Positions 17,543-49,536 of a stretch of 64,000 nucleotides of DNA are shown here, in pieces. Made by a program: the position numbers and the translations under genes. This DNA comes from Trypanosoma brucei (lineage: Eukaryota): positions 352,001 through 416,000 of the forward strand of contig CP000066.1 in assembly GCA_000002445.1 (NCBI GenBank), read 5' to 3'. Below the pieces are notes generated by a model. It searched no databases. It was given only the letters and a program-made list of their open reading frames with translations, and was not told where the DNA came from. Each line of letters starts with the position of its first letter. Within the stretch, counting starts at the first letter, position 1.

Positions 17543-17859
17543 TACCGCCGAGCGACTCCACAAACTATGTGCACCCTGCGTTCCCCGTGACATAACCTGA
17601 AACATTTTTGTCAAGCTATTCTCCTCATCAACATGTTCTCCGCGTTCCCACAACATCTGCGCACTTTAAACAGTTTTGGACGGAACGGTTACAACACGTG
17701 TCCCGCCTCGCTGCCTTCGGTTACCATGTGGAGATGCCATCATGTAAACTGTTGGGAGGTGACGAAGTTGTCCCTGCAACGGGCACTCTTAATTGTATCA
17801 TTTGCCCCTTTCACAATTATGTCAGTCAATCACTTCCTTAATGAGTTCTTGTGTGCGCA

Positions 17860-17886
17860 TGTGTGTGTGTGTGTGTGTGTGTGTGT
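17860..17886. repeat. (GT)n microsatellite (mirror copy as (CA)n at 49505-49534)
   Basis: Read directly in the sequence. Confidence 0.95.
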
Positions 17887-18123
17887 CTTTCCATCATTTC
17901 TTCTTTTGGGCGATTGATTGCATGTGATGTATCGCGACGCTTGTAGCGGCCAATGTTTCCATTGCGTCAAGCGCCAGCGTATGTGTGTCCCACCCACCTT
18001 TTCCTAATTTCTCTGTGAGTTGGAAGTGTTTAAGTAAGTAATCGTAAGCCATTTACTTTCTTCAAACACAACAAGTGGTACTGAAGGTGTGAAACTTACC
18101 ACAAGTACGAAGACACTGATTAG

Positions 18124-19329
18124 GTGCGTGCAGATTCATACGTTGTGGCAATGCCGTGTGCCACTAAAGGAGAGGCTTCACCTCCCGTAACCACACCAGT
18201 GGGACGTGACGGGTGCCTTTGTGTCGTTACATGGCAGACTGCAGGGCGCATGTCACTACAAACATGTGCTTTGGAATCTGCTGCAGATGCACTAGTTTTC
18301 TTACGCAACAACTTACCGGGAATTGCACTGTGTGGTTTATGGGTGGACATGCAGAAGTGCAGTGAAGAAGAGCATCGGCAAGTTTTACAGCTGCTTTACC
18401 CAAACATGCAGCCGAGTCACGTGGAGGCTGTGCTTGCAAATGATATGTACGACGTGGTGGAGTTGCAACCTACGGAAGGTGAGTATGTTGTTGGCTGCCT
18501 TTCGTGTTCCCCGAGCCACGGCGGACCGTTTCCTGCTGCAACCGCTATGTCGCGCACTGAGTTAGGTTGCGAGGAAGGGGTTTTGTGCTCGTTTGTGTGT
18601 AGTGAGCGTGTACTACTGACGCTGCATACAGCACCGTTTGCCGGTCTCGCGGAGTTATTTCGTCATGTTCTGAGGGACAACTCCCAGTGGCCCATGAGTA
18701 TGTCGGCTATCCTTTGCACCCTCGTGTGTTACACATGCGAATTGAGCCTTCCCGATCCTACGGCCCTAATTGGGGAGGTGGATTGTATCGACGAGATGAT
18801 GCTGTTGGTTGCCCCGGGAAAGCGCGACCAAACGGATATGCTCCGACGGGTAGCTTTACTTCGCCGCCACCTTTCGGCATTGAACCGAAAGCTACAAGAA
18901 AAAGCGAAACTTATCTCAGAGATGACTGGTCCTGCAATGCGTACGACTTTTGTGTCACGTGAGTTGCATTTGGGTTATATGTATCGGGAGGCGCTTGAAG
19001 GACTTTCGCAAGTGCTGTCACGCCTCGAGTGTGCACAAGATACACTGGATCATGCAAACCTCAACTTTATGTACGCCATAACAATGCGGATGTCGCAGAC
19101 GTCAGCGGGTTGCGATCGCCAAGTTATGATTGTTAACAAGATTGCCACTATTTGCCTTCCAGCCATTCTGGTGGCCTCCTTGTTTGGAATGAACTGCAAG
19201 GTGCAGTGGGTGGCAGACGACTGCGACAGTCTTTACCCATTTTGGACTATTGTTGCTCTCATGATAGTTTGGATGGCTGCTCTCCTGTTTCAACCGGTCC
19301 GTGACCTCATCAGGGAAAAGGGTGGATAA
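18124..19329 (+). CDS. CorA/MRS2-family magnesium transporter-like protein (GMN motif), paralog 1. Start possibly at M10 (18151).
   Basis: C-terminal ...SLFGMNCKVQW... is followed by a hydrophobic transmembrane helix, the signature [FY]GMN plus two C-terminal TM helices. The N-terminal 176 aa are identical to the right-arm paralog and the C-terminal part is about 50% identical. Confidence 0.7.
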   Translation: MRADSYVVAMPCATKGEASPPVTTPVGRDGCLCVVTWQTAGRMSLQTCALESAADALVFLRNNLPGIALCGLWVDMQKCSEEEHRQVLQLLYPNMQPSHVEAVLANDMYDVVELQPTEGEYVVGCLSCSPSHGGPFPAATAMSRTELGCEEGVLCSFVCSERVLLTLHTAPFAGLAELFRHVLRDNSQWPMSMSAILCTLVCYTCELSLPDPTALIGEVDCIDEMMLLVAPGKRDQTDMLRRVALLRRHLSALNRKLQEKAKLISEMTGPAMRTTFVSRELHLGYMYREALEGLSQVLSRLECAQDTLDHANLNFMYAITMRMSQTSAGCDRQVMIVNKIATICLPAILVASLFGMNCKVQWVADDCDSLYPFWTIVALMIVWMAALLFQPVRDLIREKGG

Positions 19330-20818
19330 GCCACGAGGGTATCGTTGTTTTGTGCTTGAGGTTGAGATTAAAAACTCATCATTGAACGTTCTAACGGGTG
19401 TCGATCCTCGACTTGGGTGTAGTTTGCGATGTGTCCGGTGTGCCCCAAAGGGCGAGTGTGTAAAGTCACTTCATCATTTTGTTAATCTGTTGCTGTCCCC
19501 ATTTGTATGATCCGCACTTCCATGTGGTTGGCGGAGTTTCCCTAGCGCAGAAAGCGCTTAATTGAGTACCTCGTCTTTTCCTAAACCTTTGAAAAGGGGG
19601 AAATTGTGACCATATACGGAAAGCATACATTTAAAAGAAGGTGGAAAATGCGTCTTTCGGTCGAAAAGGAAAGTGTTGGGGGGCGAAGGTATGTTATTGT
19701 TCAGTGGAAGACCCTTCATCCTACCGGCGGGCTCACAAGTGATCGGCACCACCGCTACCACAAATGAAACCACTGATGACTATAACGTTTCACTCTTGTC
19801 GTACGAAATGTCTTGACGAAACTTATACTTCGTTTGATTCTGAATTATTTATTCCTTCCTTCACACCCTATCATTCGTCGCCCCTTATTTACTCTTTCCG
19901 TTGGAACAATGATGTGAATCTATCTGTGCAAATGACACCTCTAGTCTGAAACACAACATGACGCGAGCACAAATACAAGTTATCCCTGGCTGAGTAATCC
20001 AACTCCATTCTCTGTCCCTTCCCTAAGCAATTCATATCGAGTTCTCTACTGAGAGAATTCGCATATATTTTTTTTATTTCCCATGTAACAAGGTGTCTGA
20101 CGCCTTATTATATGCTGCTCAAGGCTGGTGTTACTCGTGAGTTTGCTCCCCGACGGCAACTTAAATTTTACCATAACACTTACGGAACTGTGTCTGTTGG
20201 TTGTTGACAGTGCCGAAGTTCAGTGCTCTTCCCTGATGAGTGTGAAGGTAAATGTCGCTACTTTCCCTCCGGTTGCTGAAACGGAGGTGCCAACGGGACT
20301 TGAGAGTGTGTTTAGATGGTTTCTTCCTTCAGTGGTGGGATACACTGCAGAGAAACTTGCAAAAAAATTTAACAGTATCTAAAACAATTTCATGACAAAG
20401 TTGACAATAAACAACTTTACGCCCATCCTTTCCCCGCCCCTGCTGGTGTTGCACGCAATGTTGTCGTTGGAGGGCTTTATGTCTTTCTGTTACAGAAGAA
20501 TGTCTCGCAACTCCTTTTCTCCACACTTCCCTGCGTATTTAATCGGGAACTAAAAGGATCACGGGGTTGCAGTAAGAGAAGACGTCGTTTCCATAAAGTT
20601 TGGGTCGAGGCGAGAGCAGCAGCGACATGTGGAGACAGAGTTTAAACAAATAGCACCAAATTATTAATTCTTCACTAAAGTCTTTAAAGTTCACTTACAG
20701 GTTTATACAAAGTGAAGAAATATGGCACGAAATAAAAAGCCATTGGACCACCATCTAGACAAACGGATTACCTGTAGGTTTTTGGAGGGATATTAACGCG
20801 TTCCGTTTCCCGCTTTCG

Positions 20819-21349
20819 TTGCCGCACATAATATGCCGGAAAAAATCCATGTTGAGTTACCACCGGATGGTCTTCTTTGCATATTTTCTCTCTTTAATTT
20901 TTGAGTCTTCTCCTTCTCCTCCTCCAATCACAAGCCTTCGTCTTTTTGAAAGTGCATCTCAGTGTGTAGGCAAAATGAGTTATATAATTGGCCATGTAAT
21001 GAAAAAGACGGTTTTTGTGCTAGTGTTTGCGATTGTTGCGGCATCCAAAAGTGATGAAGATGATAATGATGATGATTTTCGAGTACCCACATGTGAGCAA
21101 TTACTCCCACGGTGGCGGGACGATTTGATGTGCTGTGCTGAGAAGGTACGGGATAAAAACACTTGGTGTTGTGTCAACAACGTGTCAAAAAGCATGTGGA
21201 CTGCTTTAGAGGAATGTGCCAAACAATCCCCGCGTGATTTTACCACATACCCGTGTAGTTGTCTGTCGCAACAAATGATAGAAGCAAATGGTTGGACTGA
21301 AGAAAAGGAAAGAAGCATTAAGAATGCGGAGGAACGGGAATCGCAATAA
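20819..21349 (+). CDS. small Cys-rich acidic secreted protein. The likely true start is at 20975 (MSYIIG) or 20999 (MKKTVFVLVFAIVAAS signal peptide), giving a mature protein of about 100 aa with a poly-Asp/Glu tract.
   Basis: Conserved ORF in both inverted-repeat arms (46622-47161 on -). Signal-peptide-like hydrophobic stretch, 10 Cys, a DEDDNDDD tract. An upstream (GA)n(TA)n microsatellite follows the usual intergenic pattern. Confidence 0.45.
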   Translation: MPHIICRKKSMLSYHRMVFFAYFLSLIFESSPSPPPITSLRLFESASQCVGKMSYIIGHVMKKTVFVLVFAIVAASKSDEDDNDDDFRVPTCEQLLPRWRDDLMCCAEKVRDKNTWCCVNNVSKSMWTALEECAKQSPRDFTTYPCSCLSQQMIEANGWTEEKERSIKNAEERESQ

Positions 21350-22531
21350 AACATCAAGTGAGCTGGCAGCTGAAGAGGAAATTGTGGATTGAAAAGCGGA
21401 ACAAGCAATAAAGGAAGTTAGCTCGGCAACCTAGTTAGGCACACGTTTGGGAGTAAGACCAACCTCATGAAAAGAATAATCCTTACAGTAAGCAAATGAG
21501 AAGATGAAACAGATACATCAGTATCAAAAAAGGAGAGTCTGTCCCCCCCTCCCTTTACATTTGGTGACACCACTTCTCTTTATTGCTTTTACTTCATTAC
21601 TTATTTTATTTTAAGGTTTATCCATTGTGGGTTGTTTCTAGTTGCTATTTCACGATTTGTTTCATGCCAAACATGTACATGTCCCTTCGATAAGAAACAA
21701 GGTTTTCGAGTTGCAATGTTCATGTTGTTGCATGTGTATAAAGTTGGGCACTATTCCCTTTTATCCGCATCCGCAACTTCATCACTGTTTTGTGCAAGGA
21801 GGGGAGGGGAGGTATTTTAGCAAATTCTTTTCAGAATAATGTGAAACATAATTGGGAAACGCAATAAAACAAGGTAATGATGGGACGATGTGATGTGATG
21901 TTTTTGTTGTTGTTTTTGTTATTCTCGATTGTAGTTGATACCGCTAATTTTTTTTAACTTTTCAATACGGGGATGCATACATTTGATCGCTTTGCCTCCT
22001 TGATGTTGTGTACCTCTTATGAAATTATGTGTAGCATATCCTCCATGGGCTTTAATTCTTTTGATAGTAGTTGGTTGTCCCCCATTTGTAAAGTGTTGTC
22101 CACAAGATTTCTCCACAATAGATTTTGATCTGCTTGAAAACACGTTTTTTTTTATATTATGGTACAATAATATGTCACTCTTACAAACGTCACCTACAAA
22201 CGCATTACCATTATTAGTTGTTGAATATGTTTGCCCATTAGGCGAAGTGCTGGAGGTGCAAATGATAGTGAATAAACGGATTGAATTTTTGCACATTTAT
22301 GCTGAAGTAGATTATATTATGCGTAAATGAGTGTGTTTGGTTATTGGTGATTCCCCTTGTGAGGGGAATGGAAAAATTACGCTTAAGTTACATGCGGTGC
22401 TGGTGGAAACTTTAGTTTCCGTAATAAAGGCCACCATCGGTAACTTGGCTTACTTTCTTCTTTGTATTATGAAATTGGTGTGTCTGTGCTTTTACTTTTG
22501 ATTTTTCGAAAAAGGACAAAAGAAATAAAGG

Positions 22532-23629
22532 ATGCGGATATATTTCTCATTTATTGTCGTATTGTTGACTGGGACAGTGGAAAGTTCAAAAGCAGGAAAG
22601 AAGGGTTCACAAATATTGAATGAAAACGAGTTTAAAACATTATGTGGATTTGTCAATCTGACGTTTGAAATACAGAAATTGGCGAGTGAAGGAAAGCCAA
22701 CACTTGGAGGATTGAAACCTGAAAGTGTTAACGAGTCCGTGAATACCATTTTGTACGGCAACAAAGGCAGCACCGAAATTGGTTTCGAAGGCGAAAACGA
22801 CAGGAAAGATTACTGCGGGGACAGGCAAAATCGAGCCCACAAATATGCGGGGAAAAGCTTAATAAAGGATATTTTGTGTCTATGTAAACCCCACAGAAGG
22901 CAGGGCCAAAACGGGGCTGGTGCAGAAGATCTGTGTTTTAGCGGTAACAAGTGGTACAAGGGCGGTGAGGTGTGGAGCAATAAAGAGCAAGCTAAGCAGC
23001 ATTGGGAGAAAATAAGGTTGCATTGTAACCAACTTCCGAAACGGGAGCAACATATACAAAATCAATTATACCACTTAAAGGAAAAAGTTCAAGCAGTACT
23101 GAGAACAGCGACAGAAAAGAAGGGAAGGGAATCAGATCAAAACATACGACTCGGGGGTCATCAGGCAACAGAAGTGAAGCAATGCTCAGCAACCACTGGA
23201 AAGGGTAATTCGGTGTGTTTGATGTATAACATCACTTCCGGCACACTCACCAACCATAGCATCCCCTGGTTAAAGCATCTTGAAGAACTTGCCGAGAAAA
23301 TACCGAATGATACACGAACCAATTTGGGCACGAGTGAAAACGACGTCGAAACCGTTCCAAATGGAGTTGGAGATGCCGCACCTTCAACGGACCGAAAGAT
23401 TAACGAAGGCATTCGCACTAATGATGATAATAACAATAATAATGATAATGATAATATTAATTACAAGCACAATGATGGTAATAACACTGAATATAATCTA
23501 GAAGATCCACTAATGAATGAAAGCGGAACTAATACATCCGCAGAACCACAAACACGACCACTTTGGTCAGTAAATGGGAACCCTAACCCTAACCCTTTAA
23601 AAATACTTCTTTTACTGCTCTTAAATTAA
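22532..23629 (+). CDS. surface protein A: 365-aa putative GPI-anchored, N-glycosylated secreted glycoprotein (N-terminal signal peptide, C-terminal LKILLLLLLN hydrophobic tail), left-arm copy
   Basis: Signal peptide MRIYFSFIVVLLTGTVES. About 8 NxS/T sequons. Conserved Cys including a DILCLCKP motif. Asn/Asp-rich low-complexity region (NDDNNNNNDNDN). Short hydrophobic C-terminus typical of a GPI addition signal. Distantly related to gene B (shared NxxEFKTLCG and LCLC motifs). Confidence 0.7.
   Translation: MRIYFSFIVVLLTGTVESSKAGKKGSQILNENEFKTLCGFVNLTFEIQKLASEGKPTLGGLKPESVNESVNTILYGNKGSTEIGFEGENDRKDYCGDRQNRAHKYAGKSLIKDILCLCKPHRRQGQNGAGAEDLCFSGNKWYKGGEVWSNKEQAKQHWEKIRLHCNQLPKREQHIQNQLYHLKEKVQAVLRTATEKKGRESDQNIRLGGHQATEVKQCSATTGKGNSVCLMYNITSGTLTNHSIPWLKHLEELAEKIPNDTRTNLGTSENDVETVPNGVGDAAPSTDRKINEGIRTNDDNNNNNDNDNINYKHNDGNNTEYNLEDPLMNESGTNTSAEPQTRPLWSVNGNPNPNPLKILLLLLLN
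23583..23599. repeat. short telomere-like repeat (CCCTAA)x2.5 inside the 3' end of gene A (mirror copy TTAGGG x2.5 at 44378-44394)
   Basis: aaccctaaccctaaccc read directly. It encodes the NPNPNP just before the GPI signal. Confidence 0.6.
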
Positions 23630-26600
23630 AAATATATGCATATAAATATTAAAACTATTATATTTATGATGAGATACATGGGTTTTTTTAATACCGTCGG
23701 AAAAATTAATCAAATGTTTCTGTTTCAATATGTGCTTCCCTTTGGATGGCATAAAATATAATGGGGGGTGTGCAAGGTGTAATGTAAACATTTTTAGTTT
23801 TCGCTGTGGTGGCAGATGCTTACATATATTAAAATGATTTTATCGTTTCAGTGCCTAAGCCGTTTCTGCTTTGATGTCGGTGAGTGCCGAGCGAATTCGC
23901 GGATGATGTGCTGTACGAGTGGGGGATTACGTAAATAATTGATTTTTCGACTTATGTAAAGAAACGTATTTCGACATGCTTAAGATATTTTAAGTTAGGG
24001 AAATGTATACCCTTAAATGCATGCGGAGAGCGGCGGCAGGTGCTGTCGTCCACATTTTCCACAACGCTGAATACGACAGTACAGGCGAAAAAATTGCGAC
24101 AACATTCGTGAAGTGGGGGACTTGTATGTAAAGGTCCGAGAATTAAAAAAGTGTGGGTAAGCTTATGCAGATTAGGTCCCGAGTCCCCGTGACTCCTTTT
24201 CTATCAAATCTAGTGCATGCTGCGAGGACACCTTTTTGAGGTACTCCGACGCTGCGTTTTTAACGTCATTAATATCATTTGGGAATTTGAGCAATGAGGT
24301 AAGCGGTTGAGTTAGTGGGTAAGAATATTGCTTACTGGTAAGTGTGTTCTTAGGTTCAACTTACCAAATCAGGTAGATGTTGCCGATGTGTATGCCGGAG
24401 GGAGGTGGAAATGCAAGAGAGGGAGCCACTTCATTATTACATTTTTCGCGGATATGCAAGACGGTCACCTGCAAAGAATTTTGCTACGCGACTGAAAACA
24501 GAGAAAACAGAGTGTGTATAGGCTGAAGTATCAAAAAGGGGAGGCAAGTTCCCAGGGGGTGTTCTAGTATAAATGGCCCGAAAATTGAGAAAAAAAAGAT
24601 CGGGTACTGATTATCCAGTTAATGGCCTAAGACTGCTTGTGGTTGAGGTGTCTGTGTTTTCCCTAATTCATTCTCCTCTGGAGATGCAAATAAATTCATG
24701 TTTGGTGGTGTACTATATGACCGAAAGTTGTGTTCTTTGAGAATAATAAGGCGGTTGTATGCGGCTTCGTTTATGAGGAGCCGTAACGATTTGGGGCGAC
24801 TCTCCGCGATGGAGCGATGAGGGAGTTCACCGCCACCCGAGGGGGTTTTGGTCGATTTTGGAGATTTTGTAACATTGGGGCAGGGGCGAGAGAGTACTGA
24901 GGATATGTTAAGTATCCTTTCTCATAATTTGACTTAAAAGCGAAGTCTTACGTGGGGAGGAACGAGAGGTTACGTTGAACTTGTGCGTGCTTCCAGTTAG
25001 TATTCTGCTGGCTGTGTGGATGCACAACTTGAACCTGACTTACTTTTACCATATGCGGGAGACGGCGTATTCATGTCGACGAAATGTGGTGGTATCTGGG
25101 TATTGATCATATTGCCCGTTTGGCGCATCTACGATAACAATAGTGATGAGAGAGGTGTGCTGATTGCGTACGATGGTGCAACGTTATTTCAGGGGCAGTA
25201 TCGAAGTTGTATAATTTCATGTGCAGGCGAGTAGGATTGCTGGGAAGGAGAGTTTGTGTATGGTGCGTGTGCGAGAGTAAGGGCTATACGGCACCATAGC
25301 GAACTAAAGTGACTGAACTTATTTTCTCATTTGGTGCAAGGTCGCAGCGCAAACCAGCCACGAGTGGCACTCCCATAATAGGCGGCTCGTCGATACGTCA
25401 TGTGTATACTTCCAGAAAAAGTGCTCGTGCGGAGTAAGCAAAAACGTCATGTATATGGTTAGTGTTCACACGTTGGGAGCACAGTGTTTTATACCGAGAA
25501 GATATGGGTAATATTGCATATACAGTGGGTTTTTTTTAGCAAAGTAAGGAGTAACTTAGCAAACGGGTTGTGTGAAATGGCGTCTTTTTTCGGTGATGCC
25601 ACAATCGTCTGTGATGGCGAGGGAGGGAGGGTTGACATCAACGTAACCAATGTGAGTGTCTTCTGGACTGATGTGAGGAGCAGTGGAGTTCTGCTATTTG
25701 GAAGGATAACGAATGACAGGTATATTAACGTTCACAGAGGTAGACTAGATGCCAGGCTGCTTCTATTTCTCGTTCCTTCCTCGTGGTGACCGCGCCGCCG
25801 TTCTGCCCACAAATATGCATTACGTGTAAGTGGTGGTAAAGAAAGGGGGGATTGTTTACCTATCCCTCATGAAAGGACGTGTTAAAGGCGAAATGGCTTC
25901 TCAAAAGTGCAGAGAATGTTTTCTAGGTGGAGCACCGTCTTTCTGAGAACCGCGAGCAAGGGCTCACCCAGTTTGGTCAAGTGTTGTCTGCTTCATTTTC
26001 TATGCTTTGGTGTACCTCGCCTTTACAGTTTGAGGTGAAAGGGGAACATAATTAACTTAACCGCCCCCGCTCATTTGCACTCTGACTTCCGCAGTATGTG
26101 TTGTTTCTGCGTGGGCGTAGAGGAGCTGTTAGGCGAGTGGTGCCTTCACATTACGGAGGGATGAAATAACGAATGACAGACTGCAGTTTGTTTTTAACGT
26201 AACATGCATCTTTCTTTAGGTAGCGGACGTTGAACCCGCAGAAAGTGTGTTATTGTGACGTTAGAGGAAGAGGCAAGTCAAAAGATAAGCGGATACTAAC
26301 TAAACACTTTCGAGGCCGCCTGCATGGATAAATGGATAAATCAAGAGAAACAACAGATAAAACACGAGAATTACCTTTTATCGCGCGTCGCTCCTGCAGT
26401 AGGACGACCTTCTTCAGAATTCCTGGGCACAACTGCTGTCAGTACGTCCAGCAGGCTAGCTCGGGAAGAAAACTTAACCATAGTCTTCAACATACGCGCA
26501 TAAGTTCCTTTTGATTAAACAACCGGGTGGGATGGTTTTCCATCGTTTCCAGTCTACCAAGGGCAAATAGAAAAGCGGCAGCACCGCATTCATAACGCGA

Positions 26601-27404: not shown

Positions 27405-28307
27405 TTGTTGGATCTGAAAATGACGAGTGCTTCAAAAAAATCAACGGAAGAAAATAGTGAGGAAGTGGAATGTACCAATAGCTCCAGGAAACGGCGGATG
27501 AGACAGAGGGAACGGAACATATACATCTCGGAATGCCATGGAATAAAGGAGCTATCGTCGCTCGTACGTCGCGGGTTCCAGCAGATAATGACGGCGAGAG
27601 GGTTGTTTATATCTGGGTGCCCTGATCTCGTAAAACTGGATGATGGGACCAGTGGGGAAGAAGAGGGGGGAGAATATTACAGGCAGCTGGAAGAAGTCCA
27701 AGTTAGCAGGTGCCCTCGACTCACCGATTTAAGCGGGTTGGGGAAGTGCAAGTACTTGAAGGTGGTTGATATTTCTGACTGCCGAAAACTGGAAAACATA
27801 GGGGAACTTAAAAGTTGTCGAACACTGGAGAAACTCGCGCTCTCACGGTGCACAGGCTTGGTGGATGTGAATTTGAGGGGATTTGGTAAGTTGTTATCTT
27901 TCGATATTTTCAAATGTGCGAACTTGACAAAGATATGCGGACTTTTCGGATGCCCCATACTAGAAACATTAACCGTTGAGGAGTGTGGAGACGTGAAAGA
28001 AATGGAGGTACGAACTATACGAGGACGGGTGGAAACGCTGAGAATTGCAGGGAAGAGGGCTATGGAAAATGTGGGATTTTTGTGCCTCTTCACCAATATG
28101 AAAAAGCTCGCACTATGTGGGTGTGTTGGGACTGTCGCGGAGGTACTCGGAGAGGAGGCCGGTGGGCTTCCCCGTCTAAAATGGTTGGAGTTGATTGGCA
28201 TCCGCATGGAAAGGCAAATGAAGGATAAGCCTGGAAATGGTGTTGCAGCGACTGAGGAAGGAAATAACGCTAAACGGGTATTACCAATGATTGTTCAGAA
28301 CGAATGA
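27405..28307 (+). CDS. leucine-rich repeat protein (LRRP/ESAG8-like), short 300-aa member or fragment
   Basis: Tandem ~23-aa LRRs with the LxxCxxLxxL pattern (LSGLGKCKYLKVVDISDCRKLENIGELKSCRTLEKLALSRCTGL...), the same type as the 816-aa neighbour. The N-terminus is basic and its extent is uncertain. Confidence 0.5.
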   Translation: MLDLKMTSASKKSTEENSEEVECTNSSRKRRMRQRERNIYISECHGIKELSSLVRRGFQQIMTARGLFISGCPDLVKLDDGTSGEEEGGEYYRQLEEVQVSRCPRLTDLSGLGKCKYLKVVDISDCRKLENIGELKSCRTLEKLALSRCTGLVDVNLRGFGKLLSFDIFKCANLTKICGLFGCPILETLTVEECGDVKEMEVRTIRGRVETLRIAGKRAMENVGFLCLFTNMKKLALCGCVGTVAEVLGEEAGGLPRLKWLELIGIRMERQMKDKPGNGVAATEEGNNAKRVLPMIVQNE

Positions 28308-29469: not shown

Positions 29470-31920
29470 ATGGCAACACAGTTAAATAGTGATACGGTGA
29501 CAGACTCGTTTCCGAAAAGTGGGGAACAGCAATCGCGGTCAGACAGCGGGCTTGGTGAAAGGATGAACGCGGCAAGAAACAAAGGATGGAAAGAATTAGA
29601 TATATCCTATTTCAAGGAGGTGGAGGATGTGGGGAACCTCTGTGAAGTGGCAGGTTTGTTCTTGGAGGACCTAAACTTTAGCTGGTGCACGAACATCCGC
29701 ACAACTGGGTTGGAAAAAATATGCACAGTTGAGTGCTTTCCGAGTCTGCAAAGGCTGTATCTGAACGGCACAGGGACAAATGACAGATGCATCGACAAAC
29801 TCAGCCGTGGGAATCTAAGAGTTTTGGAGTGCGGGTATTGCAGAAACATTACGGACGTTAGGCCCCTTGAAAGGAATGAAACGCTGGAAGTACTTTCGCT
29901 TCGAGGGTGCCAGAACATCGTCCATGGGTTGGAGGATGTTTGCGGTCGGTGGCTAATAAATTTGAGAGAATTGTACTTGAGCGATATGGTAGCCGTCACG
30001 GATGCGTGCATAGAAGCTATCGGTAATAGTAAAAAAAGCCTGGTCCGCTTGGAATGTGAAAATTGTGAAAGAATCACAAACGTCAGTGCGTTGGGAAACG
30101 TCAAGACATTGAAGGTATTGTTGCTCAATCACTCCAAGAACATCGCAGAAGGAGTTTCTAATATCTTCGAAATATCGGAGCTTCAAGACTTAGGCTTCCG
30201 TGGTTTTGCTAAAATTACGCAAGTAAATTTGATGCCGTGGCAGCGTTGTGCGAGTTTAACAACCCTTGATCTCTCTGGATGCAAAAAAGTAACGAACTTG
30301 AATCTGGGTGGGGAGTGTAGAAAACTCGTGTGCCTTAAGCTTTCAGAGTGTCCGCAGCTGCGGGAAGTGGATATCACCGGGTGTGAAAGTTTGACTGCAC
30401 TAAATATTTCCGGACGTTGGCATCTTAAAGTTGTGAAATTGAATGGATGCAAGGAGTTGAAGTCGATTGATCTTTCCGTGTGTCCGCACCTTGAAGACGT
30501 ATATGGAGTATGCGACTGCAAAAACTTGGAAATTTTTAACCTTTGTTTTTGTTCACGACTCACAAAATTGGAACTGGTTGAGCTTGAAAAGTTAAAAATG
30601 TTGAATCTTTGCGGGTGTAAGGACCTTGAAGATATCGGAAGTCCAAGCAGGTGGGGCAAAAACTTGGTGGAGCTTAATGTTTCAATGTGCCGGAAGCTTA
30701 ACTACATGGATTTAAGCGGAAGAGTGAAGCTGGAGAAACTTAACCTTTCTCAATGCGACAGCCTTGTAGAGGTGAATTTAAGTGGGTGCCAAAACCTCTC
30801 TTCTTTACTTGATCTTTCAAACAGCAGGGAGCTCGAAATCTTGAATTTGTGCAACTGTGGGGAGTTGCCGGCGCTTAACGTTGACGGATGCGTGAATCTG
30901 CAAATACTGATTCTGAGCGGATGCCGCAGTCTGTCGACCATGAAACTTTCCGAATGCAACAACCTCAGGGAGACAGATTTTAGCGGCTGTGCGAAGTTGT
31001 CGGCTATCAAACTTTCCAGTAGAAGGGGGATAAAGTTAGTTAAATTGGACGGTTGTATAGATTTGATGTCTCTGGATTTGTCAGAGTGTGTGAGCCTTAA
31101 GGATTTGATTGGAGTAAGTGGCTGTACCCAACTCAAGTCACTCAATCTCTCAGGTTGCAGCAGGCTCGCTGATGTCGCCGCACTAAAGGACCTCAAGGGG
31201 CTGGTGAGGCTCAACCTTTCCAGGTTGGTGGAGGTTGTGGACCTGAGCATGCTGACTGGGCACGAGGATCTGGAGGAGCTCAACCTATCTCAATGTAACG
31301 CACTTGCCGATATAAGCGGACTGAAGGGCGAATGCTCGACAAAACTGATATCTTTGAATGTATCATGGTGCAGGAGCCTTTCGGCTATCTGTGTGCTGAG
31401 TGAGTGTTGCCGTAATTTGACCACGCTGGATATTTCAGGTTGCTGGAACCTCGATGATATGAGCGTGTTGGGGTCGTTAAAGAGCTTGAGTGTTCTTAAT
31501 CTTTCTTGGTGCAGTCAACTGACCGACATAAATATGTTAGCGGGTTTGAACTGCTTGGCTGTTCTTAACCTTTCTTGGTGCAATCAGCTGGTTGATGCGA
31601 GTGTAGTGAGCGAGTTGGAAAGTATAGCCATTCTTAACCTTTCATATTGTTGTGAATTAGCGCGTTTAAATTTGAGCGGATGCATAAAACTAAAGTGCCT
31701 TGATATCTGTGGATGCGTATCCCTCAAACATTTAACTGGATTACGCAAGTGCACGAATTTAGAATCACTCTTCGCTTGCGGATATCGCGACGCGGCAGAA
31801 GACGTTCGTGACGAGTTCCTGAACATTCCATGCTCCGCTACGTTACATATCGATGAAAGCACGGACCGGGAGGTAATACAGGAACTCATGGGTTGGGGTG
31901 TTAGAGTCAAAACAATCTGA
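29470..31920 (+). CDS. leucine-rich repeat protein (LRRP, ESAG8-related LRR family), 816 aa, about 25 LRRs, no RING finger seen
   Basis: Long array of 22-24-aa Cys-containing LRRs (L-S/N-L-S-x-C-x-x-L-x-D/E-x-x-x-L). This is the repeat type I recall for T. brucei ESAG8/LRRP1. It is the last + strand gene before the strand switch. Confidence 0.8.
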   Translation: MATQLNSDTVTDSFPKSGEQQSRSDSGLGERMNAARNKGWKELDISYFKEVEDVGNLCEVAGLFLEDLNFSWCTNIRTTGLEKICTVECFPSLQRLYLNGTGTNDRCIDKLSRGNLRVLECGYCRNITDVRPLERNETLEVLSLRGCQNIVHGLEDVCGRWLINLRELYLSDMVAVTDACIEAIGNSKKSLVRLECENCERITNVSALGNVKTLKVLLLNHSKNIAEGVSNIFEISELQDLGFRGFAKITQVNLMPWQRCASLTTLDLSGCKKVTNLNLGGECRKLVCLKLSECPQLREVDITGCESLTALNISGRWHLKVVKLNGCKELKSIDLSVCPHLEDVYGVCDCKNLEIFNLCFCSRLTKLELVELEKLKMLNLCGCKDLEDIGSPSRWGKNLVELNVSMCRKLNYMDLSGRVKLEKLNLSQCDSLVEVNLSGCQNLSSLLDLSNSRELEILNLCNCGELPALNVDGCVNLQILILSGCRSLSTMKLSECNNLRETDFSGCAKLSAIKLSSRRGIKLVKLDGCIDLMSLDLSECVSLKDLIGVSGCTQLKSLNLSGCSRLADVAALKDLKGLVRLNLSRLVEVVDLSMLTGHEDLEELNLSQCNALADISGLKGECSTKLISLNVSWCRSLSAICVLSECCRNLTTLDISGCWNLDDMSVLGSLKSLSVLNLSWCSQLTDINMLAGLNCLAVLNLSWCNQLVDASVVSELESIAILNLSYCCELARLNLSGCIKLKCLDICGCVSLKHLTGLRKCTNLESLFACGYRDAAEDVRDEFLNIPCSATLHIDESTDREVIQELMGWGVRVKTI

Positions 31921-34900
31921 GACCGGCATGATTGCTCGCCAGGTGGTGTAAGCAGTTGTGTGGCCGAAGCTGATCTTTACACATTTTTTTTGCGCGCGGC
32001 ACAGGGTCAAACACATGCTACCGGAAAGCAGGCTAGCCTATACCCACTCCCTTTCATAGACAGACAACTTTTTTTCTGGAACAAGTCCAGTTGCGCCATC
32101 ATTTTAAGCGTTGAACGTAGTGGCTGCCATCGTACGGGTGCGCGGGGCCGTAGGTGCACACACCTTTCGGCCACATATGTCTACTTCAATTGAGGCTATG
32201 ACGTTGCTTAACGCTAAGGTGAAATGACAACTCTACGTGAATAGGTGCTTTTATTTCAAACATGACCTAATAGTTACGAAATACATAACATTCTTTGATA
32301 ACACAGCGGATTATTCACCACCCAACCACTATCACCTTGTCTTCTCGTATTTTCTCTCGCCCTTTCATTCCAGCACACTTACGAACTGGTATTTTCCACG
32401 CTTCTTCTCATTTTTTTTGCATGCCCACACGGTCCTTAAAGTTCACAAATTTTAGTTTGTAACCCGCCTTCTAAATGATAGAAGTTGTTGTGACAAAAGC
32501 GTAAGAGGTCGCCGAATACACATATCAACGCAGACGAAGCCACGACAAAAAAATTAAAAGGCACGCATAAAGCGACATATGTTATCCATAAGTACTAACA
32601 CATTGGGTAACAACACCCCGAGGCATCGCATCTTCAACAAAAATGTAAAACAAATGATCATTAGCCACACTTTTACAGCGCCGAAATGTTATCTGCTTTT
32701 CTTGTAAACCCCAAACCTCCCAAACATATTTAAAAAAAATTTAGCACAATTCTGATTTGTAACTTTTTCTTACCTCCGCTAAACCTACCTCTTTTAGCAC
32801 CCATCGATTAAGTACCTAGCATCTCCCTATGTTTACTTTTTGTTTGACATCTTTTAGCTAGCGGTCGACTTCGCATTACTACTTCACCCACTGCGGCGTT
32901 AGGTCTGTTCGCGCTGGCAACAGTGATGCCCCCGGCACCTTCTGATTTAGTTGCATTGTTACGTGCCATGGTTTCAGCCGACGCATACCTTTAAACCTTG
33001 CTGTTTGGATTTCTGTGTGCCGCATCGGAGGGAGGCAGCGCTTCCTTTTCTACATCGTCGGGCCTAAACAACTTTACCAAGAAAATTTCCACATCTACGC
33101 GAAGCCGTTAACCTCTTTTCTCTGGTCTAATCAAGCCACATTATCCACTTAGTGCTCAGGGGCTATTCATTGTAGTAAGTGTGTGGGAGTTTCCACTCAC
33201 CCTACTCTTAGAGCGTCACAGCAGCCCTCTATTTTGTGCCCACGCCAGTGCTACAAGTTCTCGATGAGGGTACCTTGTTCCATACATTTTGTCGGGTGGT
33301 GCGTGCATTGGAGATTCTTTGGAACCGTTTTCAATGTCAGGAACGCTCCGCTTCTCAATCTCTTCCCATTCAATTTTTATCTGGGTGTTTGTTCCCATAA
33401 AGTAGAGTACCCCCCGCCACATCAATGCGCTCGGCTGCACCTTCAATAGAGTAATTGGCTCCGACGCCAAGACCACGTGGCCAGTGCCGTAAAGGTCTTC
33501 CGTTCGCCCGTAGGACCTGATTAAAGTTGAAAAGACGTCCAAATGCGTTGCGTTGGTGTGTGGAATAACGTGGCGACGAAAAGTGGTAACTTCAACAGAA
33601 GGTAGCGGCTTTCAGTGAAGGCTCTTTTTCCAAAGCGTCGTTGACACCTCACCCGCCAGTGAGGTAAGTGGCCGCTAATTTTACACCCATGGGGTTTCCT
33701 CAACTGGCAAAGCCCATTCTCTAAGGTTGAGCTTCCTGTGGCCTCGTCTGCTCGCAGGTGAAATTTATGCAGTTTTATTCTTCACTAACTGTTTGATTTT
33801 CCGCGTGGTGTAAAGTGGGCAACAAAAACGAGGGGGTATTATTGTAGGCATCAAGCAATCCTAAGGGTGTACTTCCTTCGGAGTGGACTCAAATTCTTTA
33901 CAACCAAGAGCCCTACCAATTAAAAAGAAGGTGCAAGCAAGAAACCTCACTGCGCGTACAAAAGTAAACAAAAGAGGTGAATAATAACGGCCGAATACTG
34001 TAAAAAAAAACTAATGCGGAACAGTTGTGTGTGTTGTGGTTTGATCAATGTTATTCGCAGCCTCGGGCTCCCACCAAAAAACTAAGACTTGTAGGAGAGT
34101 GGTGTGTGACAACCAAGCTTGGGTGTTCTTGCAGTCAGTCAGAAAGTGGTGGTTATTTTTCAATTATAACAATGAGCACTATAACTGTACTAAGGAACTT
34201 TAGAAAACAGACACGAAGAGTCTTGCCACTAGCAGTACCGTTGAGTTGGAGTCAAAGTTAAATTAGGAGCGGTTTCCAGTTCCCTGCAGACCACCAGAGT
34301 TAACACCAACCTCTTCTTCAGCATCTTTCAAAGTTCGCCACCGCTGGAGTGTCAGCAATTGCGCTTTAAATATCACCTCTCGACCATGTGGTGTTCTATG
34401 CGAGAAGTGATGTGGCTACCACAAACTTTGTGCCTTTTGTGTTCATTTCCATGGACCTCCCTAGAGTTCCATCAAGTAGCCCACCTGCATTCAATGTTTC
34501 ACTAACTGCATACTACAGTGGTGTACGCGGCATTCTAGCAACAGCCTTCCTCAGTCAGTCGTGTCTCACCTCGAGGTGTTTAATCTTGTGACGGCTACTT
34601 GGCGATGGTCTCTAAGTTCTTTGGCCGTAATGCACCTTATATTTGTGTCACTGACAGAATTCTCAAACCCACTATCTGTTGTGCGTTCCGCTAACCGCTG
34701 TAACGACCTATTGGCTTCTCCCACTTCCGCAGATGGGTCCTTCGTTTCTAGGAGATTGATTCGTAGCATCGTCTGCGTTCTTGTATGTCCTCCCTTCCTT
34801 TGCAAACACCCCCACCCTGTAACCCCCATACCCATCACCCTCATGTTCTTTTTGTTCACCTTACTCTCCTGTCCACCTATCTGTATCACCGGACTGTTGT

Positions 34901-36093
34901 TGTATCTCTACTCCAAAACATGCAACACTGTTCCACGTAACTTTCGCAATTTTCCTCACTACACAAATTTCCACGAACTCCTTAAACCTCCGAAAGCGAC
35001 GAATCGGCCCCACTTTGGTGATATCCCCCTCAACCTTGTCAAGTATCCCCCTGCTCTTCCCTTGTGATGCGGTTGTTGAAAACGACTAATACACACAAAA
35101 CTCCCAGTGTACTCCATCCTACCACAAAAAAAAAACATATAGTTGCATCCTCCATCGCCTGTTACCAACATTTGATTTCCGATTATTTTTTGTATGCGCA
35201 GCATAAAGTTCCTTAAATTACCCTCACACCATGATATTTATAGTGGTTAACAACAGTCTCTCTCCTATCGATAAAGGGGTGAACCAGCCGCTTTGCACAC
35301 ACTTTGTGCCCGGCTACATCTTTTTGTCTCTAAGGTGAGGGCATTTTCCCGTGAATTTATGATTTCACCGCATTTTTTTCCTCCAAATTTCTGCCAACTC
35401 TGTATTGAAACAACTGAACTCATTCTATCAAATATTCCGTTAATTCTTGAGCACATCAGCACACACTCTCGAAAACCCGGTGAATGCTGCGACAAAACCT
35501 CCATCGGAGCGATCACGCTTTAGACAGAAATGCAATTCCTGAGAACATTACCGATAAAACGTGTAACCATCCGCACTACATTCAACTCTACACTTTTCTG
35601 GGAGTCTTTACCACACACCTTTATCCCTTCTATTCACTTAAGGTGTTAAATCTAATTTACTCAATACCTATTTCAAGGGATTGTCAATTCCATCTTGTTA
35701 AAAAAGGGACAAACCAGCTTGGAAGGAGTTTTCCTTTCTATTCCGCATTCTTTCACTTCACGGGATACTGAGAGTATTGTTCAGTCAATATTATTGAAAA
35801 AAAAATGTCAACACACTGCTGTAGCAAAAAAAAAAAAGAAAGCATAACTTGAGTGATATTTGAATCACATCACGTCGCTTACTATATGAATTTCCCATTT
35901 ACATTTGCTATCCTCTAATTCACATCCCTCCCCTGCCTTGAATCCACTAGTGTTTACCTGTTGTTGACGTTACCATCGTTAAACGTCAGAAGAGCCTTTT
36001 TTGGAATCACGCCCGTGCTCATTCTGACGTTGCTTTCCTTTTCTCTTAGTTTCCCGTCTTACCTGATATTTGCCAATTCAAACCAGGTTTTAC

Positions 36094-37194
36094 TTAATTT
36101 TTGGCATTGCCAATTTTCCTGTTTGACTCTTCAAACTCTTTTTGTAGCTTTTCAATGGCATCTGCGAGCGTTCTCTTATCATTCTCGTAGTCTTTCAGAT
36201 CCCTCATTTCGTTGAAAACTTTTAACAACTCCCTCATCCACGGTATATTCTTAATATCTCTGTTCCTACCCCTAACCACGTAGCGCACACGGTGGCCAGG
36301 GGCTTCTTGGGGCAGAATCCAGAGCCGCCAGAAGCTGAACTTTCTCCTATCACCAAAGACATAGGTAGTTCCGGTACATCCATCAACACCGTGGTTAATC
36401 ATGTCGCGGAAGTCGTTTACTAGTTTGTTAAACCCTTCTTGTGGGCCTTCCATACTTGAGCACTGTTCTTTGAGAAAATACCACCTTTCCCCCGCGTCTT
36501 CATCTGGTCTCCACACCGCCCTATTATCTCCCCTAGCGCAACGACTACAGCAGAGCTGAGTTTCTCTTCCCAAATTCATACGAGGCGCGCACAAACACAA
36601 CAAATCCCTACTCAATGATACGGACGCTTTAAGCTTTTGTGAACGTGAGAGTTGCTGCTCACATACCTGTCTCCTGTCGGAACTGCGTGCTTTAATTTCT
36701 TGTGGTCGATATGGAACACCATACAGCGCGCGATTAATACCTTTTTCGAGATCACTTGCTTTCAAAACCCATCTCCGATTTTTGGTTATATTTTGGAATA
36801 TCTGCGCAACGGAAAGAACCTTTTTTCTAATCTCCACCACTTCACGTTCGGACAATCCTCCTACCGAAAGTAGGGTTGTATTTCCCCTAGTTGCCAATTC
36901 TTTTTTCGATTCATTCCAAAACACTTTGTGGAGTGCACAGTTTCTTTTCCCCGCGCCTTCGCAAGTTTTGTTCAAATCCCTGTCTCCACTCATTTCCAAA
37001 TACATTGCTCCAATTCGAGCCGCCCCTTTAGTGATTTCCTGTGCTTCTTTCATCTTTCCAAGTGCTGCTTCTGCCAAATTTATCATGCCACACAATGTCT
37101 TAAACTCATCCCCGTTAACTATCCGCCGATCACCCGAGACAGTTGCCGGGAATACCAGCGCAAGCAAAACAGTGCAAAGATTTATAGCGCGCAT
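36094..37194 (-). CDS. surface/secreted protein B, copy 1 (366 aa). Signal peptide present, no hydrophobic C-terminus, so it is secreted or partners with a GPI-anchored protein.
   Basis: Signal peptide MRAINLCTVLLALVFPATVSG, NGDEFKTLCG and DLLCLCAP motifs shared with gene A, several NxS/T sequons. On the - strand, consistent with the right-hand gene block. Confidence 0.7.
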   Translation of the reverse strand: MRAINLCTVLLALVFPATVSGDRRIVNGDEFKTLCGMINLAEAALGKMKEAQEITKGAARIGAMYLEMSGDRDLNKTCEGAGKRNCALHKVFWNESKKELATRGNTTLLSVGGLSEREVVEIRKKVLSVAQIFQNITKNRRWVLKASDLEKGINRALYGVPYRPQEIKARSSDRRQVCEQQLSRSQKLKASVSLSRDLLCLCAPRMNLGRETQLCCSRCARGDNRAVWRPDEDAGERWYFLKEQCSSMEGPQEGFNKLVNDFRDMINHGVDGCTGTTYVFGDRRKFSFWRLWILPQEAPGHRVRYVVRGRNRDIKNIPWMRELLKVFNEMRDLKDYENDKRTLADAIEKLQKEFEESNRKIGNAKN

Positions 37195-43263: not shown

Positions 43264-44342
43264 TCTCTCCCTTCACTTCAATCAACAACTTCACCTCTTA
43301 AAAATACACAAGAAGATCATATAAAAATGCGAATGCATACCCCACATGCACCTTTGAATAAGTTATAGGAGTTGATAGAAAGGTAAATATACTACAAGTC
43401 AAATACCAACATTTGATGGATGTGCTTCTAAAAGTAAAAAAAGACTTAAGTAGTGTTAGATGGCAGTTTACAAAAGTGGAGGTAAGTGTCCTTGGTGCCA
43501 AATCGACGCATGCTCTGGCATTTCATTTGGACCTTGATTTCTGCTGTAGGGAGGTTGCATCACTTCCGTAAATCTTGGGCTTATCCACTGTAGAAATAAC
43601 CTATGACACTTTATACTTCCGAAGAATTAACTTTTGTTTGTTTTTTCCCTTTATGCTAGTTGTTCCAGCCATTGCTCGACGTCTTCTATAAACTGAAGTT
43701 TACAGTTGGTGGAGTCGAGTCATTAAAAGGTTATTGAGATGTAATAATACTCTGTAGCGTGAAGCATCATCATTGAATATGAAATGAACTTCCCCAACAA
43801 CATCGACCATCTGACGCAACGCCACACACTTCACTCGAGTGCACCCCTTCACCCTCCACTTACTATCATAACGGGCGCACAAAAACAAAGACTGCAACCA
43901 AAGCCTGTCAGAACCATGATTTACGAAAATCATAAAACAGAAACTTCCACGGATAAGTTAGCATACGGCATTTACGTCTGAGCCGTCTGCCTTCGAAACT
44001 GAATATCAGCTTCCGATCTCACACAAAAACTTGGCATAAGTTTCCTGTACCAGCAGGAGCCACACAAAAATATAACAAATGCACATAAACAAAACCTCCT
44101 TCCTCCCCCTCCAGCTTTTTATTATAAATCACAATCATGTTAATATATGTAAGTATCTGCCACCACAGCGAAAACTAAAAATGTTTACATTACACCTCGC
44201 ACACCCCCCATTATATTTTATGCCATCCAAAGGGAAGCACATATTGAAACAGAAACATTTGATTAATTTTTCCGACGGTATTAAAAAAACCCATGTATCT
44301 TATCATAAATATAATAGTTTTAATATTTATATGCATATATTT

Positions 44343-49247: not shown

Positions 49248-49505
49248 AACGTATGAATCTGCACGTACCTAATCAGTGTCTTCGTACTTGTGGTAAGTTT
49301 CACACCTTCAGTACCACTTGTTGTGTTTGAAGAAAGTAAATGGCTTACGATTACTTACTTAAACACTTCCAACTCACAGAGAAATTAGGAAAAGGTGGGC
49401 GGGACACACATACGCTGGCGCTTGACGCAATGGAAACATTGGCCGCTACAAGCGTCGCGATACATCACATGCAATCAATCGCCCAAAAGAAGAAATGATG
49501 GAAAG

Positions 49506-49536
<31 letters not shown>

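Follow-up and report, generated by a model that had tools for sequence, protein, structure and literature searches.

Proteins A and B, encoded in a window of 64,000 nucleotides from chromosome 3 of Trypanosoma brucei, are very probably members of the known VSG-related (VR) family, that is, non-variant derivatives of b-type VSGs, whose most likely role is as binding proteins and not as coat antigens. Membership of this family was already known, and A and B are neither a new receptor family nor relatives of the transferrin receptor. All four ORFs (4/4 by exact-sequence look-up) are identical to T. b. brucei TREU927 chromosome 3 proteins annotated as "VSG-related, putative" (Table 1). An earlier note, made from the letters of the window, had taken A and B for a family that it could not assign and that might be undescribed, a claim that falls with these identities and with the Pfam VSG_B matches of both protein types. 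Annotation of these genes goes back to the TREU927 genome of 2005, and for the VR family a description, a catalogue (36 members in TREU927) and evidence of enrichment in bloodstream forms have been published; the discovery value of the assignment is small, and the main question is what VR proteins do. In the cell-surface phylome the VR family is Fam09. VR genes are T. brucei-specific and their structure resembles that of T. congolense VSGs (PMC3605285), while their function is described as uncharacterised in reviews (PMC10311239).

The Pfam VSG_B profile (PF13206; gathering cut-off of 25 bits) is matched above its cut-off by A (E = 6.1e-31, 108.4 bits), B1 (E = 1.6e-67, 228.7 bits) and B2 (E = 1.1e-62, 212.8 bits). 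The match of A is partial and spans profile positions 146-336, whereas that of B covers positions 1-352 of 352, the protein stopping at the profile end. Foldseek searches started from predicted structures, a check proposed earlier against the chance that A and B have unrelated folds, matched both proteins to class-B VSG N-terminal domains only. For the B model, the best 22 matches in the PDB are all of this kind (probability 0.97-1.0), with modest TM-scores of 0.35-0.42 and with models of moderate confidence (pLDDT of 70 and 77 for the predicted structures; 76.6 for B1). In phmmer searches against the sequences of solved structures, A and B gave nothing relevant, and the link to VSGs in that comparison runs via the predicted folds only. 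Class B includes VSG3, VSG11, VSG615 and VSG1954; its domains form trimers in crystals, and for one VSG a shift between the monomeric and the trimeric state was shown in solution (PMC10501684).

The cysteine framework agrees with this assignment. In an alignment of 42 b-type VSG and VR sequences, three cysteines of A (C95, C116, C118) never vary and three others (C135, C165, C229) are conserved in at least 90%; C38 is likewise at least 90% conserved in an alignment of 14 short VRs. The two motifs that had been proposed as the mark of an A/B family are present in both proteins (NENEFKTLCGFVNL at aa 30-43 and DILCLCKP at aa 113-120 of A; NG[DN]EFKTLCGMINL at aa 27-40 and DLLCLCAP at aa 197-204 of B), but they are near-invariant throughout the same 42-sequence alignment and not specific to A and B. 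Read from this alignment, the shared motifs are a general b-type VSG signature.

Table 1. Features of the VR locus, with positions counted from the first nucleotide of the window.
Feature	Position	Strand	Description
Inverted arm, further pair	17687-18671 and 48721-49707	.	99.5-100% identity
Inverted duplication, left arm	20818-23839	.	A and small Cys-rich ORF; 99.5-100% identity between arms
Gene A, copy 1	22532-23629	+	Short VSG-related protein, 365 aa, ATG start, TAA stop; AAZ10182; inferred Tb927.3.1470
A, predicted signal peptide	22532-22585	+	aa 1-18, MRIYFSFIVVLLTGTVES; inferred from core and cleavage residues
A, shortened class-B VSG-type helical domain	22604-23326	+	aa ~25-265, 8 Cys
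A, disordered Asn/Ser/Thr-rich stalk	23327-23569	+	aa ~266-346, 3 sequons
A, predicted C-terminal GPI-type signal and TAA stop	23570-23629	+	VNGNPNPNPLKILLLLLLN, hydrophobic tail
LRR protein ORF	27405-28307	+	300 aa from TTG start; inferred Tb927.3.1480; Pfam LRR families
LRR protein	29470-31920	+	816 aa; inferred Tb927.3.1490; Pfam LRR_4 1.3e-32; final gene of + transcription unit
Convergent strand-switch region between two polycistronic units	31921-32803	.	From ORF strands and GC skew
Tandem duplication, one B gene per unit	32804-43647	-	~6.07 kb start to start
Gene B1	36094-37194	-	Anchorless VSG-related, 366 aa, N-terminal domain only; AAZ10185; inferred Tb927.3.1500
Gene B2	42163-43263	-	366 aa; differs from B1 in codons 22-29 and 209-300 only; AAZ10186; inferred Tb927.3.1510
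Inverted duplication, right arm	44133-47162	.	99.5-100% identity between arms
Gene A, copy 2	44343-45440	-	DNA-identical to copy 1; AAZ10187; inferred Tb927.3.1520

The sizes reported in the earlier note for A and B, and the position of A, agree with the ORF coordinates, which also place a second copy of A and two of B in the window. The predicted signal peptides and the sequons it had listed are likewise present, and the contrast it drew between a GPI-type hydrophobic C-terminus on A and none on B is borne out at the level of sequence. In A, the N-terminal hydrophobic core spans aa 3-16 and is followed by small residues at -3/-1 (cleavage between VES and S), and the protein has eight N-glycosylation sequons. 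Its stalk has a pLDDT below 50 over aa 276-346 of the predicted model, is 26% Asn across aa 285-345 and varies in length among strains. The C-terminus, ending in WSVNGNPNPNPLKILLLLLLN, is the sole hydrophobic segment besides the N-terminal core (Kyte-Doolittle >2 at 355-357); the tail comes after S346, has a short hydrophobic run of 9-10 residues only, and has aligned counterparts, likewise hydrophobic, in 11 short-VR paralogues. The C-terminus of A is GPI-type as a prediction; other VRs have PredGPI scores of 0.93-0.996 (PMC4587319). The stop codon of A, which follows the terminal LLLLLLN, is a sense codon in T. b. gambiense (both copies), in T. b. equiperdum and in one Lister 427 copy, and these stop-loss alleles give products of 433-437 aa that end in a tail resembling 3'UTR. 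Given this polymorphism, GPI anchoring of A may not be conserved, or else the stop-loss alleles may be decaying.

B1 and B2 are 86% identical. The predicted signal peptide of B has a hydrophobic core at aa 3-19 and VSG followed by D or S at the cleavage site (-3/-1); the protein has four to five sequons, ends in a charged helix and lacks a hydrophobic tail.

A and B align in pairwise BLASTP at 23% identity (E = 9e-8), consistent with the earlier view of them as highly divergent yet related, and a profile-profile comparison of the A and B subfamilies gives a probability of 99.6% (E = 1.5e-23 over 190 columns). This similarity is far above chance and, on these alignments, A and B are homologous. 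Word-indexed homologue searches, including alignment at E<=10, returned near-identical orthologues only, whereas an exhaustive search of representatives reached the paralogues, and in it short VRs of other loci match A better (E = 2e-29) than B does (E = 7.6e-5). The closest relatives of A are collinear short VRs in which a signal peptide precedes a VSG_B match limited to profile positions ~145-343, and which also have a low-complexity stalk and a hydrophobic tail. The nearest paralogue of B, on chromosome 11 (P0039/P0061), is 40% identical to B1, has a full-length VSG_B match and lacks a hydrophobic tail; its gene lies at a convergent switch next to an LRR protein gene, with no A-type neighbour within 10 kb. 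In the other VR cluster on chromosome 3, all members (3/3) have hydrophobic tails. Judged by these comparisons, A and B are not sister genes, nor a recent GPI+/GPI- duplicate, but belong to separate VR subfamilies. A rule of recurring GPI+/GPI- pairs, absent at both of the paralogous VR loci checked, was rejected.

The same comparisons bear on a reading in which GPI-anchored A and anchorless B form a hetero-oligomeric invariant receptor, a b-type analogue of ESAG6/ESAG7 in which A tethers B to the membrane and the pair binds a host macromolecule in the flagellar pocket. A tail on A and none on B, up-regulation of both in the bloodstream stage and the tendency of class-B VSG domains to oligomerise would suit it, as would the gene order: in TREU927 A (44343-45440) immediately precedes B (42163-43263) on one strand, and the order is the same in T. 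b. gambiense, with 871 bp between the called A ORF (70 codons of read-through included) and B. Moreover, the B lineage lost its anchor long ago and the loss has been conserved, being common to the only distantly similar chromosome 11 paralogue. However, ESAG6 and ESAG7 are near-identical except at the C-terminus (PMC3605285), whereas A and B come from different VR subfamilies, and A is shorter than B by ~90-100 profile positions, a difference in domain size that makes a symmetric side-by-side bundle like that of the transferrin receptor unlikely. The match to the transferrin receptor fold is insignificant, stop loss in some strains would disrupt the anchor signal of A, and neither the chromosome 11 B-type gene nor the tail-bearing cluster on chromosome 3 repeats the arrangement. 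We therefore regard such a receptor as improbable, and the ESAG6/ESAG7-style pairing logic put forward earlier is unsupported, given the closeness of A to short VRs elsewhere and the B-type gene that stands without an A-type neighbour. Equally doubtful is a broader proposal built on B, by which anchorless B-type VRs would be an ancient lineage on chromosomes 3 and 11, always adjoining LRR genes at convergent switches, and would act as the soluble subunit of an invariant receptor of the bloodstream stage, or as a secreted effector, tethered by a GPI-anchored partner (A or another) in the manner of a b-type ESAG6/7 counterpart and with a putative host ligand.

The preferred assignment to non-variant VR proteins is also consistent with the genomic setting. 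Long ORFs are all on the + strand up to 31920 and all on the - strand from ~33 kb, the sign of the GC skew flips at 32 kb, and the VR genes occupy the far ends of two polycistronic units, which run towards each other and meet at ~32 kb in the core of chromosome 3. The locus is chromosome-internal and its flanking genes are housekeeping ones (DnaJ, AAA ATPase, CorA-like, Rce1-like). Two adjacent genes match Pfam LRR families, as the earlier reading had it; the T. b. gambiense orthologue of the shorter one is called at 295 aa. The aligned parts of the tandem duplication (32804-37581 versus 38872-43647) are 97.6% identical over 4793 columns, and the nucleotide differences between the B1 and B2 ORFs are confined to two patches. 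In T. b. gambiense one unit stands in place of this duplication, with the position and order of the VR genes conserved. Across subspecies the ORFs are intact, 96-98% conserved and syntenic. The inverted repeat on chromosome 3 is not among the seven published siRNA-producing inverted repeats, and a paper on H3.V and base J holds no information on the VR locus.

Gene ids Tb927.3.1470-1520 were inferred from consecutive accessions, from a probe common to the identical pair and from the identity of the DnaJ gene as Tb927.3.1430. In a microarray study of cultured trypanosomes, mRNA levels were higher in bloodstream than in procyclic forms by 4.3-fold for the shared Tb927.3.1470-1520 probe, 33.1-fold for Tb927.3.1500 (signal 13,722), 12.5-fold for Tb927.3.1510 and 4.8-fold for the LRR gene Tb927.3.1490 (PMC2771046). 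This 2009 paper is the only literature found that names these ids. VR proteins as a group are enriched on the surface of bloodstream forms by proteomics, with translation and surface association shown for Tb927.5.130, Tb927.5.110 and Tb927.2.2060 (PMC4587319); the part of its table that was available has no chromosome 3 entry between Tb427.03.1430 and Tb427.03.1590 and lists neither A nor B under a Lister 427 VSG id.

The VSG catalogues of Lister 427 and EATRO1125 include orthologues of these genes (VSG 1559, 1316, 1554, 1125.1401 and 1125.1402), which raises the reading that the ORFs are not expressed as proteins, being pseudogenes or silent VSG genes of the archive, useful only as donors for mosaic VSGs. 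The two sharply bounded patches between B1 and B2, as from segmental gene conversion, a T. equiperdum allele that holds both B patches in tandem, and the polymorphic stop codon of A point in the same direction. Canonical VSG mRNAs carry a conserved 16-mer, TGATATATTTTAACAC, in the 3'UTR. No match to this 16-mer was found in the whole window with up to two mismatches, no tandem arrays, those of 70-bp repeats included, were found at 19-48 kb with Tandem Repeats Finder, and Trypan_glycop_C, the VSG C-terminal domain, has no Pfam match in A or B at E<=1. Unlike class-B VSGs such as VSG3, VSG11, VSG615 and mVSG1954, A and B lack the C-terminal domain, the 16-mer and the 70-bp repeats, as well as the canonical 17- or 23-residue VSG GPI signal; they are not subtelomeric, belong to polycistronic units transcribed by Pol II and do not vary from strain to strain, and A also has neither the top lobe nor the distal half of the bundle. 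These absences, together with the position of intact, syntenic ORFs among housekeeping genes of the chromosome core, the abundant and regulated mRNAs and the detection of other VR proteins on the surface, make a silent archive highly improbable.

As non-variant VR proteins, A and B would enter the ER via a cleaved signal peptide and then acquire disulfide bonds and N-glycans. A would be a short form without ~90-100 VSG_B profile positions, which correspond to the top lobe and to the half of the bundle farthest from the membrane; a GPI anchor would replace its last ~19 residues, and the domain would sit on a disordered Asn/Ser/Thr-rich stalk of ~80 residues at the bloodstream-form surface or in the flagellar pocket. 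B would be a complete class-B N-terminal domain that ends at the junction to a would-be C-terminal domain. Since B stops where that domain would start, it may be released, into the flagellar-pocket lumen or the medium, or held non-covalently, for example by the trimerisation typical of class B. The genes of both are proposed to be invariant, Pol II-transcribed and stage-regulated, and their products would most likely act where host and parasite meet, as neofunctionalised binding proteins with a VSG fold and a putative ligand. From sequence alone the question of VR function is no more testable than before; the locus is nevertheless a compact place to ask it, because a short tail-bearing VR adjoins an anchorless one.

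Comparison with known systems places A and B within the VR genes, of which all four ORFs are members: a b-type VSG domain, a chromosome-internal location, no VSG C-terminal domain and bloodstream enrichment (Marcello & Barry 2007, as cited in PMC3605285 and PMC2854126). No differences were noted at the family level, A being of the short tail-bearing kind and B an anchorless protein of the N-terminal domain only. T. congolense VSGs P0040 and P0047 are collinear with A; they match VSG_B only from position ~145, like A and its paralogues, and like A they have a GPI-type tail and lack a Cys-rich C-terminal domain, but they belong to another species, are variant antigens there and are ~25-31% identical to A. 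The earlier note had listed VSG-related proteins, ESAG6/7, PAG and HpHbR as candidate families. The first was correct, and membership of the others was rejected on Pfam and fold evidence; what the note observed is confirmed, and its interpretation is partly supported. ESAG6/ESAG7 and PAG resemble A and B in being VSG-derived and bloodstream-stage, with one member that has a GPI signal (in A a predicted one) and one without at each locus, but they derive from a-type VSGs, whereas A and B are b-type, and the near-identity of ESAG6 and ESAG7 differs from the low identity and unequal domain size of A and B. Neither Pfam nor Foldseek gave a significant sequence or fold match of A or B to the transferrin receptor, and the fold match to the HpHbR/GARP three-helix bundle is no better than that to VSGs. 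Fam1 (Tb927.6.1310) and TgsGP are flagellar-pocket proteins, bloodstream-enriched, with a signal peptide, a GPI signal and a b-type VSG N-terminal domain without the C-terminal domain; Fam1 lies at a strand-switch region, as do genes of the A and B types (PMC3605285, PMC2854126). Both are of different lineages from A and B, and TgsGP, unlike A and B, lies in a subtelomere and occurs only in T. b. gambiense.

A and B, the secreted-type proteins that the earlier note had been unable to assign, belong to an already known and annotated family, the VSG-related (VR) genes, which are non-variant relatives of b-type (class B) VSG. The window comes from chromosome 3 of T. b. brucei TREU927, where A is an exact match to GenBank AAZ10182 and AAZ10187, B1 to AAZ10185 and B2 to AAZ10186, all annotated as "VSG-related, putative". 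As these accessions are consecutive, a probe set is shared and the DnaJ gene upstream within the window is Tb927.3.1430, we infer that A corresponds to Tb927.3.1470 and Tb927.3.1520, B1 to Tb927.3.1500, B2 to Tb927.3.1510 and the leucine-rich repeat (LRR) proteins to Tb927.3.1480/.1490; the microarray probe set in question covers "Tb927.3.1470-Tb927.3.1520", as expected of an identical pair (PMC2771046). All three distinct proteins (3/3) fall in Pfam VSG_B (PF13206) well above its threshold of 25 bits, with B1 and B2 matching the whole profile (1.6e-67 and 1.1e-62, respectively) and A matching profile positions 146-336 only (6.1e-31), and the Pfam scan of A, B1 and B2 found no match to a-type VSG, C-terminal-domain or ESAG families. 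What had been observed of A and B, signal-type segments, both motifs and multiple sequons, was all found in the sequence, as was the ORF of A itself, and the interpretation placed on it is partly supported.

Every A and B protein carries a signal-type hydrophobic segment at the N-terminus. The two share N-x-[DN]-EFKTLCG-x-[IV]-NL (A 30-43, B 27-40) and D-[IL]-LCLC-x-P (A 113-120, B 197-204), with 8 N-glycosylation sequons in A and 4-5 in B. The C-terminus of A reads ...NPNPNPLKILLLLLLN and that of B is a charged helix. BLASTP of A against B gave an E-value of 9e-8 at 23% identity and comparison of the A-subfamily and B-subfamily profiles gave a probability of 99.6% (E = 1.5e-23 over 190 columns); at the sequence level, the likeness is well beyond chance.

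Features of the A/B locus and of compared loci (window positions unless another locus is named)
Feature	Position	Strand	Remarks
A copy 1	22532-23629	+	365 aa; ATG start, TAA stop
A copy 2	44343-45440	-	DNA identical to copy 1
TAA stop of A	23627-23629; 44343-44345		copy 1; copy 2
Asn-rich tracts of A	23360-23600		aa ~300-355
B1	36094-37194	-	366 aa
B2	42163-43263	-	366 aa
CorA-like paralogues	18124-19329; 47958-49247	+; -	magnesium-transporter-type
Small ORF	20819-21349; 46622-47161	+; -	in both inverted-repeat arms
Inverted duplication, arm pair 1	20818-23839 / 44133-47162		99.5-100% identity
Inverted duplication, arm pair 2	17687-18671 / 48721-49707		99.5-100% identity
Tandem units	32804-37581; 38872-43647		4.8 kb; 97.6% identical overall
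B-type VR and neighbours, L005	6457-14553		T. b. equiperdum chromosome 11
246-aa ORF, L003	12137-12877		after short VR

PDB sequence searches with A and B found no relevant match and structures were therefore predicted, using alignments of 42 and 39 relatives. The model of A (pLDDT 69.7) has a confident core at aa ~25-265 and is disordered at aa 276-346, and that of B1 (pLDDT 76.6) has long helices, H28-77 among them. The check on predicted structures that the earlier note had proposed places B1 with class-B VSGs, to which all of the first 22 Foldseek matches belong (probability 0.97-1.0). TM-scores are modest at 0.35-0.42, and hence the fine packing of the A and B models is not to be trusted. 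The transferrin-receptor fold was rejected for B1, with 6soy matching at just E 3.4 and probability 0.04. Structural class B, defined by VSG3, VSG11, VSG615 and VSG1954, packs as trimers in crystals, and for one VSG there is biochemical evidence that monomers shift to trimers in solution (PMC10501684).

With A as query, exhaustive HMMER searching (E <= 0.001) identified 37 relatives. The best non-orthologous ones, with E-values from 2e-29 to 1e-12, are T. brucei proteins of 330-380 aa collinear with A; most are annotated as VSG-related and encoded either at a different site on chromosome 3 or on other chromosomes. Common to A and these relatives are a predicted signal peptide, an N-x-x-EF-x-x-LC helix, a VSG_B match starting only at profile position ~145, a low-complexity stalk and, at the C-terminus, a short hydrophobic tail; the tails of the relatives can be aligned to that of A. 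Two T. congolense VSGs (P0040, P0047) are as short as A, in agreement with the published resemblance of VRs to T. congolense VSGs in structure (PMC3605285). Upon alignment to B, A lacks approximately B residues 45-130, comprising the top lobe and the distal part of the helical bundle. B was reached from A only at E 7.6e-5, and among paralogues the nearest to B is a VR of 356 aa on chromosome 11 (40% identity) with a full-length VSG_B match and no hydrophobic tail. Because the tail is absent from this protein too, anchor loss in the B lineage is old and conserved. Judged by these alignments, A and B are not sister genes.

This bears on the ESAG6/ESAG7 transferrin receptor, to which the pairing of a GPI-anchored with an anchorless member had been likened. 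That A and B form a heteromer of this type is very improbable, as the ESAG6/7 logic needs closely related GPI+/GPI- paralogues, which A and B are not, and as the pairing is not repeated at two other VR loci. In the second chromosome 3 VR cluster, two longer VSG_B proteins come after a short VR and both have a hydrophobic tail at the end, and no A-type gene occurs within 10 kb of the chromosome 11 B-type VR. The adjacency of A and B is thus kept between subspecies, but not between paralogous loci. The chromosome 11 B-type VR lies at a convergent switch, next to an LRR protein gene. At L005, three features surround this anchorless VR. Upstream of it are the degenerate remnant of an LRR protein and, immediately adjacent to the VR, a 224-aa ORF without a Pfam match that has a low-complexity stalk and a hydrophobic tail in addition to a predicted signal peptide; the LRR protein on the downstream side is intact (410 aa). 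A similar ORF follows a short VR at L003; small tail-bearing ORFs and LRR protein genes thus accompany VR genes repeatedly at transcription-unit ends.

A Leu codon replaces the stop codon of A (proteins P0001, P0005, P0006 and P0007) in T. b. equiperdum, in Lister 427 VSG-1316 and in each of the two T. b. gambiense copies, yielding read-through products of 433-437 aa whose extra ~70 residues resemble translated 3'UTR; this loss is a caveat for the predicted GPI anchoring of A. In TREU927, the read-through frame breaks down after ~20 codons. The 365-aa form, kept in TREU927 (both copies), Lister 427 VSG-1559 and EATRO1125, looks ancestral because the stops of paralogues align with that of TREU927. 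In A, the lengths of the Asn-rich tracts NNNNN-ND-ND and NPNPNP differ among strains in 2-residue steps, and these stalk-region differences point to replication slippage.

In cultured bloodstream forms, mRNA exceeds that of procyclic forms by factors of 4.3 (shared A probe), 33.1 (Tb927.3.1500), 12.5 (Tb927.3.1510) and 4.8 (LRR protein Tb927.3.1490) (PMC2771046). TREU927 has 36 VR genes (PMC2854126), and VR genes are T. brucei-specific (PMC3605285). Several VR proteins with high PredGPI scores are among the most enriched in the bloodstream surface proteome, and the A/B-locus proteins were not found in the searched tables of that study (PMC4587319); a 2023 review still lists VR functions as uncharacterised (PMC10311239). 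With the identity, fold and setting of A and B established here, we infer a mechanism in which both would enter the secretory pathway and be N-glycosylated. A would gain a GPI anchor and, in bloodstream forms, stand on its disordered stalk at the cell surface or in the flagellar pocket. B, an anchorless N-terminal domain, would either be secreted or be retained non-covalently, and might form a trimer of the class-B type. Since the genes are invariant and Pol II-transcribed, A and B would be neofunctionalised VSG-fold proteins, not coat antigens.

Genes up to 31920 are on the + strand and those from about 33 kb onwards on the - strand, which makes the locus a convergent strand switch. At their distal ends, both units carry a CorA-like gene, a small ORF and A, followed by two LRR protein genes in the + unit and by B2 and B1 in the - unit. 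Two duplications gave rise to this arrangement, one inverted, with arms spaced ~20 kb apart around the switch, and one tandem, carrying B (about 6.07 kb start to start). The T. b. gambiense locus has an identical gene order with a single B unit. A list of seven long T. brucei inverted repeats that are siRNA sources excludes 17687-23839/44133-49707 (PMC3447711). The locus is without canonical VSG gene marks: Pfam gave no match to the VSG C-terminal domain, the VSG 3'UTR 16-mer is absent from the whole window even with 2 mismatches allowed, and 19-48 kb contains no tandem arrays of the kind that 70-bp repeats form. The CorA-like paralogues (68% identity overall) are identical through ...AELFRHVL, i.e., ~the first 180 codons, within the inverted-repeat arm, and diverge beyond it; a duplication boundary therefore lies inside the gene and the paralogues are chimeric. 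The small ORF, conserved in T. b. gambiense, encodes from an internal Met a cysteine-rich protein of ~124 aa that has a signal-like segment (MKKTVFVLVFAIVAAS) and an acidic run; its sole Pfam match, to the Meg family of plants, scores 20 bits and falls below the cut-off of 27 bits. Its product may be another small secreted protein of the bloodstream-stage cluster.

All of the 114 nucleotide differences (114/114) between the B1 and B2 ORFs lie in two patches with sharp boundaries, at codons 22-29 and 209-300, where 51 codon differences are non-synonymous and 18 synonymous, a pattern that looks like a segmental gene-conversion mosaic. A 467-aa T. equiperdum allele (P0014) carries B2-type and B1-type patches in tandem.
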